Assembly: GCA_003229935.1 (NCBI GenBank)
Contig: QIGD01000002.1
Coordinates: 1 to 49,150 of the forward strand
Direction of reading: 5' to 3'
Length of the DNA: 49,150 bases
Source: Methanobacteriota archaeon
GTDB lineage: Archaea > Hydrothermarchaeota > Hydrothermarchaeia > Hydrothermarchaeales > BMS3B
Position 1 is the stretch's first letter. Each line of letters opens with the position of its first letter. Position numbers and translations under genes: made by a program. Below are positions 33,683-48,301 of this stretch, piece after piece. Under the pieces are notes generated by a model. It saw only the letters and a list, made by a program, of their open reading frames with translations. It did no database searches and had not been told where the DNA came from.

Positions 33683-35370
33683 ATGAGAGAACTTATTTTC
33701 AAGTATGCTCTGAAGAATGCTCTCGATTTTGGCAATGCAAATCCAAAGGCTGTTATCGGTAAGGTGATTGCTGAAAATCCTGATATGAGAAAGAAGGTTA
33801 AGGATTTATTTCCTGTTGTAGAGGAGGTCATTGAGGAAGTCAATTCTCTTAGCAGAGATGAGATAGAGGGATATATTAAGAGTTTCACCTTTGAAGAAAA
33901 GGAGAGAAAAAAAGAACAGAAGCTTCAGGAATTGAAATGTGCGGAGAAGGGCAAGGTGGTGATGCGTTTTGCGCCCAACCCTTCGGGACCTCTTCACATG
34001 GGTCATGCAAGGGCTGCTGTGCTCAACAGTGAATATGTAAAGTACTATGGGGGGAAGCTGATTCTCAGGTTTGAGGATACAGACCCTGCCAGGGTTATGC
34101 CTAAAGCTTATAATATGATAAGGGAGGATTTAAGGTGGCTTGGAATTGAATGGGATAAAGAGGTGGTTCAGTCTTCAAGATTAGAAATTTACTATAAATA
34201 TGCAAGGGAGCTTATAGAAAAAGGCTTAAGCTATGTATGTACATGCACCGCTGAAGAATTTCAAAAATTGAAGATAGGTAAGGTTGAGTGTCCACATAGA
34301 AACACCGCATCCAGGAAAAATCTTGAAAATTTCGAGAGGATGTTTTCAGATTTTAATGAGGGTGATGCTGTTTTAAGATTTAAGTCTGGAGTTGATTTAC
34401 CTGACCCTGCTATGAGGGAATTTCCTTTAATGAGAATAAGTGAAAAAAAGCATCAAAGCATCCTCTTGTTGAGGCGAGAGTTTATCCTCTTATGAATTTT
34501 TCAGTTACAGTGGATGATCACCTTCTGGGACTTACCCATGTGCTTAGGGGTAAGGATCATATTGTCAACACGAGAAAGCAGGAGTTTATCTACAATGCAT
34601 TTGGCTGGGAAATGCCGGAATTTATCCATTATGGCAAGCTGAAAATTGGAGGTCTTGCTTTGAGCACCTCGAAGATAAGCGAAGGTATAAGAGCAGGGCT
34701 TTACAGCGGATGGGAGGATGCAAAGCTTGGTACTCTGAGGGCCCTGAGGAAGAGAGGATTGCAGCCTGAAGCTATAGTAAAAACAATGCTTGATGTTGGA
34801 GTTAAACAGAGTGATATTAACTTTTCCTGGGAGAATCTCTATTCTTATAACAGGGCAATTATCGAACCGGATGCAAATAGATACTTTTTTGTAGCACAGC
34901 CTAAAATTCTTGAGGTTGAGAATGCGGAGAGTGTTGAAAATTATGCTCCGTATCACCCGGATTATCCTGAAAGGGGTAAGAGAAGGCTTGTTATAAATGC
35001 TGATAAAGCTGGTAAGGTAAGAGTGCTCATTTCTTCAAGGGATTTCTCAAATTTAAAGCAAGGAAATTTTATAAGATTGATGGGGGCTTTCAACATTGAA
35101 ATTCTTGAGGTTGGAGAGAAGGCCAGATGTATATTCAGGAGCTTTGAGCTCGGAGAAGCAAGAAAAAGAAAGGCAAGGCTTATTCACTGGTTGCCCGAGG
35201 AGGGTAATATTGAGGTTAAGGTTGTGAAACCTGAGGGTATCGATACCGGTTTTGCGGAGAGGCTTCTTGAGAAGGAAAAGACTGGCAGTATTGTGCAGTT
35301 TGAGCGCTATGGTTTCTGCAGGATTGATGATAAAAATTCTATTATTACTCTCTATTTCACCCATGAGTGA
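33683..35370 (+). CDS. gltX: Glutamyl-tRNA synthetase, read in two frames joined by a -1 shift at the A7 run 34443-34449
   Basis: [16 protein letters not shown] (HIGH) in ORF 33683..34495. The -1 frame opens at 34444 and reads [39 protein letters not shown], continuing through the rest of class I GluRS to the end of ORF 34492..35370. Confidence 0.85.
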
Positions 35371-38455: not shown

Positions 38456-39130
38456 TTATTGTAATTTTAATTTTTCAAGGATTTTAAGCGTTCTATAAAC
38501 CTTTACGTGATTTATATCAATTTCAAATTCTTCTGCAACTTTGGTGGCTATTTTTCTGTATGATAACTTCCTCTGCCTCAATTCCTTAATTCTTAGTGCT
38601 GCCTCGGATGGTGTAACCTTTGTGTGCTTTTCTCTTTCTACCTCAAATAAGTCTGGAATTCTACCTATCCAGTATCCATCCTTCTTTATCTTCTGCATTC
38701 CAAACCTGGTCTTTCTTGCTAAATCTTTTCTGAAATAGGTTGCAAAACCGGCCTGAAGAGTGAAAAAGAGTTCACCTTCGGGAGATGTTATATCAACATC
38801 CAGGTTTGAAAATCTGAATCTCACCTGATGTCTGAGGAGCTCCTGGGTGATCGTTAGAGCATCTTTTGTATCTCTGCTTAGCCTGTCGTTGTGATAACAT
38901 AGGACAACCGAAAATTCTTTGTTTTTTGCGTCTTTGATTAGTTTCTGGAGAGCAGGTCTTTTCAAATTTTTCCCACTGTAGCCTTCATCAGTATATGTGC
39001 CGTAAACTTCAAAATCTTCTTTTTTTGCCCATTCCTCAAGAAACTCTTTCTGTGCTTCAATACTGGCTCCTTTTTCGACCTGCTCCTCTGTGCTTACTCT
39101 GATGTAAAGAGCTGCTTTTTCACTGCCCAT
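38456..39130 (-). CDS. Small serine recombinase (resolvase/invertase type) with C-terminal HTH
   Basis: ALYIRVSTEEQ nucleophile motif, YHNDRLSRD, the alpha-E region, and C-terminal LSYRKIATKV HTH. 224 aa. Confidence 0.85.
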   Translation of the reverse strand: MGSEKAALYIRVSTEEQVEKGASIEAQKEFLEEWAKKEDFEVYGTYTDEGYSGKNLKRPALQKLIKDAKNKEFSVVLCYHNDRLSRDTKDALTITQELLRHQVRFRFSNLDVDITSPEGELFFTLQAGFATYFRKDLARKTRFGMQKIKKDGYWIGRIPDLFEVEREKHTKVTPSEAALRIKELRQRKLSYRKIATKVAEEFEIDINHVKVYRTLKILEKLKLQ

Positions 39131-39215
39131 AATGTTAGATTGTGATGGTTCATATATATCTGTTACGTAAGGGAGCCCTTACGTAACTGAAAATTTCAAG
39201 GAAAATGGGGTAATT

Positions 39216-39941
39216 TTAAGGGACATTGTCTTTGAGATACCGGGACTGGAAATCAAAAGCGTCGTTGACTATGGGAGTGTATGAGAGGCCTTTCAGTCTT
39301 GATAAAGCCTCCTCATACTCTTTTTCAGCAATTATTGCTTTGTGAGAACCTTTAACAAGAATGTTGTTCCATCTCAGATAACCACAGTATATAGGATTTG
39401 AAAGAATCTTTGATATGGTCTGCTTTTTCCATTTTTTACCTTTCTTTGTCAGGACTTTTCCTTTATTCAGAATCTCTACTATTTCAGAAAGACTTTTTCC
39501 GTTTATATATAAAGAAAAAATTTTTTTTACATGCCAGAACTCCTTTCTCTCAATAATAAGTCTGTTATTCCTATAGGTATACCCATATGGTGCAGAAAAC
39601 CCTGGATAGTTTCCTGATTTGACTCTTCTTTCAAGACCAAATCTGATTTTTTCAGAAATATTCTGGGATAAATCAAGAATTTTTATAAGAAATGTATTTC
39701 TGTCTTTGAAAGAAGTTATATTTTCTCTGGCCAGAGCAACTTCTATATCTTTTGAAAATAATTCTGCTAGAAAATATGGGAAATTTCTAATCTCTCTCTG
39801 TGCTGCAGCAAGAGATGATAAAACAATCACATCCACGTCTGTGTTCTCTGGATACTCTCCAGCATATATCCATTTCATTTTATTTATATAATCCAGTATT
39901 CCTTTTTTCTTTCCAGATACTGAGGCAGCTTTTACACTCAA
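39216..39941 (-). CDS. Recombinase-domain protein (large-serine-recombinase RD) without a recognisable catalytic Ser motif or zinc ribbon
   Basis: PYGYTYRNNRLIIERKEFWHVKKIFSLYINGKSLSEIVEILNKGKVLTKKGKKWKKQTISKILSNPIYCGYL is the PF07508-type block. The N-terminal 110 aa resemble only the distal part of a resolvase domain. Confidence 0.65.
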   Translation of the reverse strand: MSVKAASVSGKKKGILDYINKMKWIYAGEYPENTDVDVIVLSSLAAAQREIRNFPYFLAELFSKDIEVALARENITSFKDRNTFLIKILDLSQNISEKIRFGLERRVKSGNYPGFSAPYGYTYRNNRLIIERKEFWHVKKIFSLYINGKSLSEIVEILNKGKVLTKKGKKWKKQTISKILSNPIYCGYLRWNNILVKGSHKAIIAEKEYEEALSRLKGLSYTPIVNDAFDFQSRYLKDNVP

Positions 39942-41940: not shown

Positions 41941-43722
41941 ATGAATCAAGAGACTGAAACCCATCTGGAATATTCATTACATAGAGAAAAGGCTAAAACT
42001 CCCGAAGAGCTTTATATTGATTATAAAAATACCTATATTTATCTTATACTTTCGAAAATCCAGAGGAAATTTGATGAGAAGGGCTTTCACCAGATGTTAG
42101 CCTATCTTGTGATGGTGATATTCACCTTTGATTATCTTGACCGCACAGGAAATCATAGAGAAACCAGAGAATTTTTAAAGTTTACAGGCTGGTCACTTGA
42201 CAGGTACTCAGAACTTTCAGGTAAAAACCTTGAAGATAAGATAACTCTGGCTGTGAATATTGAATATCCCCAGCTACCTGAAGATGAAAAATCTGAAATT
42301 ATAAAGATGGTGAAGGCTTCTTGGAAATGGCTGAATCTGGATAAAAATGAGACAGAAAATTTTGAAAAAATTATAGACGAAAAAAGAAGGTTATATAAGT
42401 TAATTGACACTCTCCATGATAGAGAAAGATTAAACATAATTGAATTTTTGAGAGAAAATATGGGTACTGAAACCAGTATTGAACTTATGAATATTGGAAT
42501 AGTACCTACAGAGCTTTGTGTTAATAACTGCCGCTTCTGTGTTGCAGCATGGAAATCAAAACCAGAGGAGAGAGGTAAAAGTATAACTCCTGAGGATTTT
42601 AAGCGTATTGCCTCGGAAGTAATGACTTTTGCAAATAAAGAGAACCTGATAGTTACAGTAACTGGAGGTGAGCCTTTCCTAGAGCTTGATAGGCTTGAAG
42701 ATCTGATTTCTAGAGCAGACTCCAGAATTGATATAACTACCAGTGGTATATGGGCATCCTCTGAAGAAAAAGCCTATGAAGTTCTCAGCAGGATTGATAG
42801 AGCGAGAAAGAAAAATACAAATAAAAACTTTCATATGTCCCTTCAGCTTAGTTTAGATGCCTTCCACCAGGAGGTTTTCCATGATGAAAGAGGAAATTAT
42901 TATCAGAATGTGCCTGTTGAATATCTGATTAATATTATCAATGTTATACATAAGAAAATCCCTGAAATTGAACTTGTTCTCCTTACAAAGCTATCTGTTT
43001 ATCCTGACCCTCTTGTCCAGTTAATTCTCAGACTTGGGGAAAATGGGTATACAGTGAGGCTGGGGGAGAAGTTCTATAAAGAAAGTATTAAAATACCTAT
43101 TATTGAAGGTAGCGATATTATAACAAAACCGGCATTACTGAAAGCCTATATGTATCTTGTGCCTCGTGGCACCACGGGGCAGGAAGTCCAGCCAATTCTT
43201 ATCTTCTATACTGCTGTTGAGAGTATAGGCAAAGCTTCTGCCCTTGAAGAATTTGAATTTCCTGGCTTCAGAAGGGAAGTGAAGCAATTTCTCGAAGGAA
43301 AGTTTCCTGAACCCCTGCCCCTCATTGGAATAGAGGTGAGTGACGATGGTCTTGTGTACCCTGGAGCTCACTCCCTATATACATGGAGTATAGGAGATGT
43401 GTTGCATGAAAGTCTTGATGAGATTTATGATAGGATAAAATATGACCCTCTTGTTAGAGCTCTTAACACCTCACCCTATCTCATAGTAAAAATTGCCTTT
43501 GAGGCTGAAGAACTCGAGCTTGAAAGAGAATCATCACCCCTTGCTGCAGTATATAAAGTTCTTGAAAGACCTGAACTCCGTCTTTATATAACTAAAAGGC
43601 TCCTTCAGGAACTTCTAGAGTACAACCCATTCATAAGGAAGTTAAGAATACCAGAAAAGAAATATCTATTACGTGATTATAAAAATGCTGTAAAAAATAA
43701 CACAATATATAAAAATGAGTGA
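41941..43722 (+). CDS. Radical SAM protein with ~190-aa N-terminal and ~200-aa C-terminal extensions of unknown type
   Basis: CVNNCRFC (CX3CX2C) around residue 194 and a GGEPFLE SAM-binding motif. No SPASM or twitch cysteines visible. Confidence 0.7.
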   Translation: MNQETETHLEYSLHREKAKTPEELYIDYKNTYIYLILSKIQRKFDEKGFHQMLAYLVMVIFTFDYLDRTGNHRETREFLKFTGWSLDRYSELSGKNLEDKITLAVNIEYPQLPEDEKSEIIKMVKASWKWLNLDKNETENFEKIIDEKRRLYKLIDTLHDRERLNIIEFLRENMGTETSIELMNIGIVPTELCVNNCRFCVAAWKSKPEERGKSITPEDFKRIASEVMTFANKENLIVTVTGGEPFLELDRLEDLISRADSRIDITTSGIWASSEEKAYEVLSRIDRARKKNTNKNFHMSLQLSLDAFHQEVFHDERGNYYQNVPVEYLINIINVIHKKIPEIELVLLTKLSVYPDPLVQLILRLGENGYTVRLGEKFYKESIKIPIIEGSDIITKPALLKAYMYLVPRGTTGQEVQPILIFYTAVESIGKASALEEFEFPGFRREVKQFLEGKFPEPLPLIGIEVSDDGLVYPGAHSLYTWSIGDVLHESLDEIYDRIKYDPLVRALNTSPYLIVKIAFEAEELELERESSPLAAVYKVLERPELRLYITKRLLQELLEYNPFIRKLRIPEKKYLLRDYKNAVKNNTIYKNE

Positions 43723-43746: not shown

Positions 43747-43759
43747 AATATATATATTA
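43747..43759 (+). promoter_or_regulatory. TATA-like box upstream of the small-ORF / SPASM maturase unit
   Basis: aatatatatatta lies about 30-40 nt upstream of ATG 43788, and ggtga lies 5 nt upstream of that ATG. Confidence 0.35.
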
Positions 43760-43787
43760 CCTGTGTTAACAATATTATGGTGATAAT

Positions 43788-43856
43788 ATGAAAATAAGTA
43801 AAATAAATAAGAAGGTTCTATATAGTTGTGCTCAGTGCCATAAGGGCTGCATGTAG
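43788..43856 (+). CDS. 22-aa Cys-rich peptide, candidate RiPP precursor
   Basis: Own translation: MKISKINKKVLYSCAQCHKGCM. Lys-rich N-terminal half and a CxxCxxxC C-terminal half that includes CAQCH. The stop TAG abuts the next ATG. Confidence 0.45.
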   Translation: MKISKINKKVLYSCAQCHKGCM

Positions 43857-44006
43857 ATGATTAATATGGGGCTAACTGAAGAAGTGAGGACAAGAGTGTG
43901 TACCAAGTGTGATTTTTATAAAGAAGAAGAGAAGCTGGAATGTGCAGCCTTCAAAGAAGCAAGAAAACTGGTTGAGCAAAAGAAAATAACACTTGATGAT
44001 CTCTGA
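43857..44006 (+). CDS. 49-aa Cys-containing small protein, alternative precursor or accessory
   Basis: Own translation: MINMGLTEEVRTRVCTKCDFYKEEEKLECAAFKEARKLVEQKKITLDDL. Its TGA overlaps the ATG of the maturase (cTGATG at 44004-44008). Confidence 0.45.
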   Translation: MINMGLTEEVRTRVCTKCDFYKEEEKLECAAFKEARKLVEQKKITLDDL

Positions 44007-45169
44007 TGTATCCTAAACTTAAGAATTCAGTTTTGAAGATGGCTGAATCTCCTTTTTTGTATAATTATTTAGAAGATGAAATATATGAATTGGATTTTGA
44101 AGCCTTTGACCTCCTGAAACATTTCACAGGTAAAAATTCATTGGAATCTATTACAAGAGACCCTTCGGAGGAGGTTAAGGAACTGATTGATTTCTTGGCC
44201 TCTGAAGGATGTATAGAAGACAGCCATATGAAACATTCCTGTGATATGTTCAATGTTGTAGAAAATTCTAAACCTTCTCTCAGATATCTCCAGATGCACA
44301 TAACAACAAAATGCAATCTGGACTGTGCCCACTGCTACCTTGGAAAGAAAAGTGGTATTGATATGGAAAAAAAGCTTGCTTTTAAAATAATAGATGAGTT
44401 CTCTGAGGTTGGATGGAAGCTTTTGATAACTGGTGGCGAACCCTTTCTAAGCAGTCACTTCTGGGATATTCTGAAATATGCATCAAAGAAACCCCTGAGA
44501 ATTGAGGTTTTCACAAATGGAACACTTCTCACAGAAGGTATGGCAGAAAAGCTTGGCAAATATGCTCACATGGTACAGATTAGTCTTGATGGTATTGAAA
44601 CAGGGCATGAAATTTTGAGAGGAAGGGGAACTTTCAAAAGTACAATAAAAGGGATAGAAAATGCCAGAAAATACGTTGAGGTTTCGATAGCCACTATGAT
44701 TCACTCCTATAATCTTAAGGAATTCCCGGAACTTTCGGAATTAATTGAAGAACTTGATATTGAGGGTTGGAGCCTTGATGTACCCTCATCCAAAGGCAAT
44801 CTTGAATTCAGGCAGGAGCTTATTCCTGATTATAAAGAAGCAGCCAGAATATATTCTAGCTATGGTTTCTCCAATGAAATGCATCTTGGGAGTGAGAATT
44901 TTGCATGTGGCTCTCATCTTATGTCTGTAAGTGTTGATGGAAATATAACAAAATGTGGCTTCTTTGATAGGAGTTTGGGCAGAATTGGTAAAATCTCGCT
45001 TATGGAGGGCTGGAAGAAAGTTATTGAAAATTTTGTTCCAGATTTACAGGAGTTGGAATGCCGAGAATGTATAAACCTCAGAGAATGTAGGGGAGGTTGT
45101 AGATATAGGGCTGAATTAAGTGGGGATTTTCTTGCTAAAGACCCCTTCATGTGCACACTTCTGGAATAA
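44006..45169 (+). CDS. Radical SAM / SPASM peptide-modifying enzyme with N-terminal PqqD-like (RRE) domain
   Basis: Residues 1-90: IYELDFEAFDLLKHFTGKNSLESI...VKELIDFLASEGCIE. CNLDCAHC at Cys103/107/110 and GGEPFL. C-terminus: C-x10-G-x4-C (CGSHLMSVSVDGNITKC) then CRECINLRECRGGC (CX2CX5CX3C) and a trailing Cys. Confidence 0.85.
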   Translation: MYPKLKNSVLKMAESPFLYNYLEDEIYELDFEAFDLLKHFTGKNSLESITRDPSEEVKELIDFLASEGCIEDSHMKHSCDMFNVVENSKPSLRYLQMHITTKCNLDCAHCYLGKKSGIDMEKKLAFKIIDEFSEVGWKLLITGGEPFLSSHFWDILKYASKKPLRIEVFTNGTLLTEGMAEKLGKYAHMVQISLDGIETGHEILRGRGTFKSTIKGIENARKYVEVSIATMIHSYNLKEFPELSELIEELDIEGWSLDVPSSKGNLEFRQELIPDYKEAARIYSSYGFSNEMHLGSENFACGSHLMSVSVDGNITKCGFFDRSLGRIGKISLMEGWKKVIENFVPDLQELECRECINLRECRGGCRYRAELSGDFLAKDPFMCTLLE

Positions 45170-46937: not shown

Positions 46938-48301
46938 TTACCCTACGCAAAGCTCTTTTCTCAGCAGATTTTCCATCTCTTTGTAGACATCTTTTTCCAG
47001 AAGTTGCCATGTGGCCAACAGCGATGCGATGTACTGGTAATGCTCAGCTCCTTTCTCAGACCTGAATGTCCCGATTATCTTCCTCATGATAACATGTTCC
47101 CGCATGGCCTGTTCACCTAGATTATTTGTAGGTTCCATGCCTGAGTAGAGCAGACATGTGTACCAGCACCCAAGCCCATTCTTTATATATGTCATAGGTT
47201 TGTGAAGTCCCTCATACTTAGTGAATCTTTCCACTAACTGGGCCATCTCAATATCCCACTGTTTTTTCATTTGTTTCCTATCTTCCATGGGCGGCTCTTT
47301 ATCCAGGAACTTCCTCATTTTCTTGAATTTGCAGTGGATGACCTTTGAGAGTTCTTCTCTTTCTGGCATGTCCTTATAGTCATCCACTTCCCGAAGGAGA
47401 TGTACCCAGCATCGCTGCAAGACCTGAAAGGTATTGTATGCTGATCAGCCGTCGGTTATGCCAACACCTGCAATTTTTGCTCCCAGGATTTCCTCCAACA
47501 CTTTCCTACTTTTTGATGGCCTGATTACCACCAGAATATCCGTGGGTGTCCTGAATATCCATAGCCACCAGTTTTTGCCGTTGACTCTAATTCCAGTTTC
47601 ATCCACGTATTTCTAGGGTGCATTACGCGTTCAAGGGTTCGGAGATACTCGTTCTGGCAGGCGCTGCCCACCCTTAAAAGCATGTCTTGAATGCCTTTAG
47701 GGCTGATGCCAAAGTCATTAACCTTGCTGGTAAAATTCCCAATCTTACGAAGAACACCTCTGAGCATGAACTTGAGCATGGTGACATAGACCAGAAGACC
47801 TATGCCGAACCTGCCTTTCTGTGGGCAATCCTCATGCTTGGCTGTGAACTAGTGACCACAGTTATTGCATTTGACGACACTCCTATCAAACTGTGTAGCT
47901 TTGATCTGCTGGAGTCGGTATATTAAATCCTCAATTACTACAGGATTAACATCAATCTATTCAAGGTCGCTGCTGCCGCACTTCTCACAGTGGTCTGCGA
48001 ACACACCTACGTATTCGTCAGGATTTTGGATGGGCCTTGTGTCTCCTCTGTGGCCTTTTGGTGCTCCACGTTTCTGGCCATCCTTGCGTTTCGGTTTCTT
48101 CTTGAATCGCTTTGCTGATGAGGGTGTGTGAGGGTTCTCATATTTTGCCAGCTCTTTCTTGAGATATGCAATCTCTTTAGCCTGAGCAGCAATAATTTTA
48201 GCTTGCTTGGCTACCGTTTTATTAAGTTCCTCTACACGGACGTGGATGTCCATGTAGGATGGGTCTGGGGATGAAGGTAATTTGGCCAAACTTGCTGCCA
48301 T
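46938..48301 (-). pseudogene. IS66-family transposase, broken into at least 3 frames
   Basis: N-terminus: leucine-zipper AKQAKIIAAQAKEIAYLKKELAKYENPHTPSS...CEKCGS (47957..48301). Middle piece at 47525..47779. C-terminus: RCWVHLLRE...EPTNNLGEQAMREHVIMRKI.GTFRS..GAE (46938..47420). Confidence 0.8.

Follow-up and report, generated by a model that had tools for sequence, protein, structure and literature searches.

The stretch of DNA analysed here, 49,150 nucleotides (nt) of contig QIGD01000002.1 (assembly GCA_003229935.1) from a Methanobacteriota archaeon of the lineage Hydrothermarchaeota, is referred to below as the window. It carries a minimal cassette of three genes within 1.4 kb, all on the forward strand. 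Gene A (43788..43856) would specify a basic peptide of 22 amino acids (aa), MKISKINKKVLYSCAQCHKGCM, probably a precursor; gene B (43857..44006) an acidic mini-protein of 49 aa with three cysteines, probably an accessory partner of the maturase; and gene C (44006..45169) that maturase, an enzyme of 387 aa combining a recognition element for peptides made on the ribosome and modified post-translationally (RiPPs), or RRE, with a radical S-adenosylmethionine (SAM) core and a SPASM domain. By the open reading frame (ORF) listing and the sequence, the TAG stop of A abuts the ATG of B with no gap, while the TGA of B and the ATG of C overlap as TGATG. A predicted ribosome-binding site, GGTGA (43779..43783, +), lies 4 nt ahead of the start of A, and an A/T-rich, TATA-like box (43747..43759, +), read from the sequence as a putative archaeal promoter, lies ~35 nt 5' of its ATG. 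Three related loci (L081, L084 and L087) have TATA-like boxes 35–45 nt 5' of A, and GGTGA elements too, so the box already placed ahead of the unit by an earlier interpretation of this DNA, made without database searches (the sequence-only reading), has equivalents elsewhere. The same reading called both small ORFs coupled, unannotated and Cys-rich. The coupling stands; A is indeed unannotated in the sister metagenome-assembled genomes IPdc08 and BMS3Bbin15, but B appears in their GenBank records as a "hypothetical protein" (GCC10180.1, GBE54103.1), and each ORF has just three Cys. A sister protein of C (GBE54104.1) has been automatically named "subtilosin biosynthesis protein AlbA". Exact-sequence look-up places the contig itself, with these sister genomes, in a Candidatus Hydrothermarchaeota (MBGE-A) population of deep-sea sulfide deposits (PMC6759336). 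On balance, A-B-C rather probably forms a single transcription unit for a peptide maturation system of the RiPP type.

Residues 1–92 of C (44006..44281, +) would form an RRE-like peptide-recognition domain of the PqqD-like winged-helix kind, as judged from an AlphaFold2 (AF2) model, Foldseek searches and profile alignments. The radical SAM core follows (residues 93–290; 44282..44875, +), with 81 bits against PF04055 (cut-off 29.5) and the motif C103-x3-C107-x2-C110 (CX3CX2C, nt 44312..44335). The remainder (residues 291–387 plus the stop codon; 44876..45169, +) belongs to the SPASM subgroup by TIGR04085 (37.7 bits, cut-off 27), with the Pfam SPASM model PF13186 below threshold (17.9 vs 21.5), and has seven cysteines in the pattern C301-x10-G312-x4-C317, C352-x2-C355-x5-C361-x3-C365, C383. 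The C family is ~390 aa long and conserved from end to end. Among 120 orthologues C103, C107, C110, C301, C317, C352 and C355 are invariant, and C361, C365 and C383 are kept in at least 90%, which bears out both cysteine signatures described from the letters alone. In the AF2 model (pLDDT 94, pTM 0.92) the N-terminus consists of strands at residues 3–5, 8–12, 16–20 and 25–28 and then helices at 31–37, 46–49 and 55–66, that is, the four strands and three helices characteristic of RRE-dependent maturases at the level of fold. Profile alignments with CteB, SuiB and TigE start at residues 15, 18 and 10, respectively, within the RREs. The best fold matches in the PDB are SuiB, SkfB and CteB, followed by anSME, ChlB, TigE and PqqE, and those to SuiB, CteB and TigE span the full length of the protein. 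Together, the hidden Markov model (HMM) scores, the conserved cysteines, the predicted fold, the PDB matches and the profile alignments confirm the predicted RRE / radical SAM / SPASM architecture of C, which is typical of peptide maturases, and the PqqD-like domain proposed in the sequence-only reading is upheld at the level of fold (AF2 model, matches to SuiB, SkfB and CteB).

The association of the three genes was examined in 20 genome loci that have a full-length orthologue of C (L001–L020), in 60 control loci of other radical SAM-SPASM families (L021–L080) and, in the reverse direction, in 80 loci obtained by scanning metagenomes with B. A profile of A finds it in 18 of the 20 genome loci at 26–41 bits (L002 is cut by a contig end), with a best score of 11 bits anywhere else, and B is present, in single or duplicated form, in 13 of the 20. 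Neither occurs in any of the 60 control loci, where the best score for A is 9 bits. Of six distinct archaeal loci retrieved by identity look-up, every one has B directly 5' of C, and three also have A. In the reverse test C is found immediately 3' of B in every one of the 70 metagenome loci that leave more than 320 nt of room, and A in 43 of the 45 where C is complete and flanked on either side by at least 200 nt, the order being B-C-A in 31 and A-B-C in 12. A is thus co-located and co-conserved with the maturase, as expected of a RiPP precursor gene. The archaeal holders of C are Hydrothermarchaeota, Methanoperedens, Methanosarcinales and Pyrohabitans, and the bacterial ones (L001–L020) Nitrospirota, Desulfobacterota, Rokubacteria and Actinomycetota. 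A, B and C are thereby shown to be a co-inherited module of archaea and bacteria. The cassette is not specific to archaea, and the presentation of the locus as an archaeal one falls with its occurrence in those bacterial groups. The outline of a precursor-and-maturase cassette is, in contrast, strongly supported by comparative genomics, although not with two equivalent small ORFs, since A looks like the precursor and B is more likely an accessory. Orthologues of C lacking adjacent small Cys-containing ORFs had been named as a finding that would overturn the proposal; the orthologues do carry such ORFs.

Peptide A was first spotted by eye in L008 and L013 and later in L081, L084 and L087. The 80 instances now collected comprise 47 distinct peptides of 18–22 aa (nearly all 20–22) with the consensus M-[TK]-I-[KR]-K-[VI]-x-[KR]-[KR]-x4-C-K-C-[KHN]-x-S-C(-x), in which C14, C16 and C20 are invariant and I3, K5, K15 and S19 nearly so. 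The peptide is near-invariant across Hydrothermarchaeota, Nitrospirota, Desulfobacterota and Actinomycetota, and matches no Pfam or NCBIfam family. In the window its layout is a leader, MKIxKIxKK, and a core, C-x-x-C-x3-C, with the letters C-A-Q-C-H-K-G-C-M. As a check on the A profile that avoids circularity, a phmmer search was run with the window peptide alone against 48,587 six-frame segments. The 14 best non-self matches (best E 3e-4) are all A ORFs of other archaeal cassettes, with L081/L099, L084/L100, L087, L104, L102, L103 and L126 at the top.

Because the window ORF is very short, opens the operon on its 5' side and includes three Cys codons, it could instead be a cis-acting regulatory leader (a Cys-codon attenuator or an upstream ORF) with no product of its own. 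The DNA of the A genes makes this extremely improbable. When 45 distinct DNA versions encoding the 20-aa form are compared, codon positions 1, 2 and 3 show 4520, 4351 and 10092 differences; all three Cys are written with TGT as well as TGC, and Ser19 with AGY as well as TCN codons. GGAGGTG or a related purine-rich variant stands 5–9 nt 5' of the start in almost all of the 60 distinct A genes listed. The amino acids are thus kept while the codons drift, behind a strong ribosome-binding site, which argues that A is coding. Its position also varies: A may precede B, follow C with a strong ribosome-binding site of its own (31 of the 43 metagenome loci and most bacterial genome loci), or lie on the opposite strand (L001, L163 and L167), and for this reason it is not a cis-acting leader ORF. 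By its pattern of codon change, A is a translated peptide of 20–22 residues under purifying selection, and the possibility, raised at the outset, that the small ORFs go untranslated is countered for the 22-aa ORF by coding-type conservation and a ribosome-binding site.

Mini-protein B is acidic around its three cysteines (C15, C18 and C29), which are invariant along with F20, L27, E28 and A31, and its AF2 model is a helix, a Cys loop and a second helix (pLDDT 78). The family comprises 633 clusters at 90% identity and, among 1.84 billion representatives, 122 at 50%, which makes it a rare one; all the clusters are unnamed and without a Pfam domain, and B has no relative in Pfam, NCBIfam, PDB sequences or PDB folds. 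A duplicated form of 110–120 aa has eight Cys. In L008 (Syntrophaceae; L008:5596-7134) and L013 (5650-7044) the N-terminus of C carries this duplicated form as an in-frame fusion, and A stays a separate gene; in L020 (5605-7116) the first half of B is an ORF of its own and the second half is joined to C. Four Nitrospirota loci (L003, L010, L014 and L016) have A adjoining C and no B alongside.

These arrangements bear on the question of which small protein is modified. B could be the true substrate, or a second one, with its three Cys cross-linked and A an accessory or optional second substrate. The invariance of its cysteines would suit this role, as would its place before C in all 70 metagenome loci and its direct coupling 5' of C in every archaeal locus, including three where no A lies close by (L089, L091 and L093). 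A substrate would, however, be unusual as an in-frame fusion to its own maturase; B has a predicted helix-loop-helix fold; the Nitrospirota loci that keep A have no B next to C; and it is A that has the short leader-plus-core layout expected of RRE-dependent precursors. A substrate role for B is accordingly rated as unlikely, if still worth weighing. The B-C fusion in two bacteria suggests instead that B is more likely an accessory subunit or partner of C than its substrate.

The genes flanking the cassette were compared by all-against-all clustering of the flanking ORFs, and no protease, exporter or immunity gene recurs beside it. The comparison thus strongly supports the sequence-only reading on the lack of an adjacent protease or exporter and on a possible intracellular role. 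What conservation there is in the flanks is at the level of clades, with TPR proteins in Nitrospirota and NifS/NifU plus ATP-grasp in one clade. In the latter (L112–L175; A = MTIKKVAKKFSGLCKCKASC) an ATP-grasp_3 gene lies 3' of B-C-A on the same strand and NifU and NifS are divergent and 5' (e.g. L166:5506-6423, L142:1786-2964 and L125:2976-3815), a synteny limited to that clade. ThiS-like and TtuA-like sulfur-transfer genes 3' of the maturase in L093 (6217-7317), a Hydrothermarchaeota locus, are seen at no other locus.

Upstream of A in the window, the gene at 41941..43722 (+) encodes a 593-aa protein that is itself a radical SAM protein (PF04055, 39.7 bits) without SPASM, a point not made in the sequence-only reading. 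Its family has 54 clusters, and GenBank pipelines name the protein QueE. It adjoins A-B-C in the window, L081-83, L087-88, L098 and L099, all of them close Hydrothermarchaeota relatives, whereas in L095–L097, from three other genomes, homologues stand among MoeA, MobA, MoeA-PBP and AOR or molybdenum (Mo) oxidoreductase genes with no A or B near. Its inclusion in the cassette was rejected on the grounds that those homologues lack A and B and that in GCA_002011125.2 the two are on different contigs. The company of Mo and tungsten (Mo/W) genes in L095–L097 suggests that the 593-aa protein is probably a separate, uncharacterised enzyme linked to the Mo/W cofactor.

A further alternative would place C itself with the maturases of cofactors or proteins, of the kind of AhbD/NirJ, anSME or the tungsten-cofactor enzyme, and give the small ORFs no part in its work; its adjacency to the 593-aa radical SAM protein would suit a cofactor role. 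The highest NCBIfam scores of C are to AhbD, NirJ and anSME, with AhbD and NirJ the best, and these enzymes share with C a SPASM layout with two auxiliary clusters; the family of the 593-aa neighbour lies beside MoeA, MobA and AOR in L095–L097; and MOT1 or Mo-oxidoreductase genes are found near the cassette in a few loci. Yet C scores three- to five-fold under the family cut-offs (AhbD TIGR04545, 115.7 vs 500; NirJ TIGR04055, 107.6 vs 500; anSME TIGR03942, 62.6 vs 349), is as far below that of the tungsten-cofactor maturase (76 vs 380), and reaches no NCBIfam equivalog cut-off. AhbD, NirJ and anSME have neither RRE nor partner peptide, the tungsten-cofactor family likewise lacks the RRE that C has, and A and B accompany C almost without exception. 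A general link of A-B-C to Mo/W was also rejected: in tblastn searches with eight Mo/W proteins, such genes are near only 8 of 115 cassette loci (mostly duplicates), compared with 1 of 60 controls. Altogether this makes such an identity for C very unlikely, and the kinship with AhbD, NirJ or anSME that the sequence-only reading had listed as fatal to its proposal is not borne out by the family cut-offs.

Taken as the maturase of a RiPP pathway, C invites comparison with systems of known type. The closest in spirit is the SCIFF peptide with CteB (Tte1186/CteB type; TIGR03973/TIGR03974), likewise an RRE / radical SAM / SPASM enzyme beside a short Cys-rich peptide, and CteB ranks with the best matches of C in both sequence and fold. 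The SCIFF peptide, too, is highly conserved over a wide taxon and is not known to have a conserved protease or exporter. The two systems nevertheless differ in that A (20–22 aa, three Cys, a very basic leader) has no similarity to SCIFF, B has no counterpart there, C scores 11.9 bits against the SCIFF maturase model TIGR03974 (on its SPASM part; cut-off 425), and the cassette ranges over anaerobic archaea, Nitrospirota, Desulfobacterota and Actinomycetota, as against Clostridia for SCIFF. SuiB/StrB, the Lys-Trp maturase of streptide, is the best fold match of C (E 4e-17, TM 0.69) over its whole length including the RRE, at ~15% sequence identity; since A has no Trp, the chemistry must differ from that of SuiB. 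A small conserved precursor, an RRE and a radical SAM-SPASM enzyme also make up PqqA/PqqD/PqqE and MftA/MftB/MftC, and PqqE is one of the fold matches. The products of those pathways, pyrroloquinoline quinone (PQQ) and mycofactocin, remain inside the cell. The RRE is, however, fused in C and separate in the Pqq and Mft systems; C falls short of the MftC model TIGR03962 (79.5 vs 265); no peptide with an MftA-like C-terminal GVY is present; no tailoring enzymes such as PqqB/C/F or MftD/E/F are conserved beside the cassette; and the core of A is based on Cys, the Pqq and Mft cores being Glu/Tyr or Val-Tyr. Among the AlbA/SkfB sactipeptide synthases, SkfB is the best PDB sequence match of C (E 4.9e-26), a match confined to residues 99–248 in the radical SAM core; unlike these, the cassette has no subtilosin-like precursor, transporter or immunity genes. 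C also lies well below the cut-offs of the curated sactipeptide and ranthipeptide families PapB (NF047865, 73.8 vs 340) and StsB (NF045574, 83.8 vs 625). The cassette would operate like an RRE-dependent radical SAM-SPASM RiPP pathway.

A scheme for such a pathway can be proposed from these comparisons. The basic N-terminal half of A (M-K/T-I-K-K-V/I-x-K-K) would act as a leader that docks on the RRE of C, which would cleave SAM reductively to give a 5'-deoxyadenosyl radical; this radical and the two auxiliary Fe-S clusters of C would then modify the core, C-K-C-x-x-S-C. The likeliest chemistry would be one or more intramolecular cross-links through the Cys sulfurs, that is, thioethers of the sacti- or ranthipeptide type, a default guess by analogy with SkfB and CteB. 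B might assist C by binding a metal or an Fe-S cluster, or by chaperoning the very basic A. Rather than an antimicrobial, the product would be a small peptide, cofactor-like or metal-binding, that is retained in the cell. With no protease, exporter or immunity gene linked to the cassette and so little variation in A between phyla, an intracellular product is probable; the near-invariance of A in both domains likewise speaks less for a secreted antimicrobial, which would vary, than for a peptide with a cofactor-like or housekeeping function. More tentatively, and with less than even probability, A-B-C may make an unrecognised peptide-derived cofactor, or a metal- or redox-active mini-peptide, that is kept in the cell by a logic like that of PQQ and mycofactocin. 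The whole of that proposal, equally tentative as a joint claim, would have the 20-aa peptide A as the precursor, C with the help of B as the maturation machinery, and anaerobes of both domains as the users, namely Hydrothermarchaeota, relatives of Methanoperedens, Nitrospirota, Desulfobacterota and Actinomycetota.

Several observations weigh against this account of A as the precursor and C as its RRE-dependent, thioether-forming maturase. Three profile searches had been suggested for the 387-aa protein; those with PF04055 and TIGR04085 gave the matches described above, but PF05402 (PqqD) gives no match to the N-terminal domain. The nearest structural relatives disagree on the chemistry, with thioethers for SkfB and CteB as against a Lys-Trp C-C bond for the best match, SuiB. 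B-C occurs without a detectable A nearby in L089, L091 (Methanoperedens), L093 and L101, so in these loci A may be unnecessary or have its gene at another site, and B could be the substrate; A was not found, by profile or by eye, in the locus DNA examined from L089, L091, L093, L004 and L012. The remaining points concern the window and its close relatives. Residue 306 of C (44921..44923) is Met in the window and Cys in at least 90% of the 120 orthologues; the window A, alone among the 47 variants, has C-x2-C (CAQC) where the others have C-K-C; and the A of L098, whose maturase is 94% identical to that of the window, is a broken, start-less remnant (...SCSQCHKK*). Together these three features suggest that the MBGE-A lineage may be modifying or losing the peptide, and the window copy itself may be diverging or decaying. 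Cys306 of the orthologues could provide the SPASM domain with an eighth ligand for its clusters. A more specific assignment, as the fourth ligand of auxiliary cluster I, was tried and set aside: the alignment with anSME skips that stretch. A close relative, P0003, also has Met at residue 306, and P0065 has Ala there. In L098 (1780-2000, contig VAOY01011081.1) the A remnant lies in a diverged spacer that separates B from the 593-aa gene.

Other features of the window can be noted briefly. ThiD-ThiN sits 5' of the 593-aa gene. On the other side, 3' of the cassette and on the other strand, is a thermosome subunit, recognised from its translation; the syntenic gene in L081 carries PF00118. Near the thermosome gene an IS66 transposase is spread over several short ORFs (46938..48301, −), with a DDE_Tnp_IS66 match at 46941..47420 and more fragments upstream of it on the same strand, indicating a decayed insertion. 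At 33683..35370 (+) the catalytic domain of a class I Glu/Gln-tRNA synthetase is split between two overlapping ORFs (33683..34495 and 34492..35370), through either a frameshift or an assembly error. At 38456..39941 (−) an ORF with a Recombinase domain (39216..39941) lies upstream of one with a Resolvase N-domain (38456..39130), the opposite of the usual domain order in serine recombinases.

Radical SAM/SPASM peptide maturases are already known, but the two partner families of this clade are in no curated family: no curated Pfam or NCBIfam family describes A, B or this clade of C, and no description of any of them was found in the literature searched, which included the radical SAM-RiPP compendium, although papers beyond it may exist. 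One partner is a 20-aa peptide of a size usually missed by gene callers, and the other an orphan mini-protein with three Cys. The conservation of A between bacteria and archaea is on a par with that of the cofactor precursors PqqA and MftA or of the enigmatic SCIFF peptide, and its degree suggests a physiological role in anaerobes rather than that of an antibiotic. Study of the cassette could bring to light a new small cofactor or new radical chemistry acting on a Cys-Lys-Cys core.

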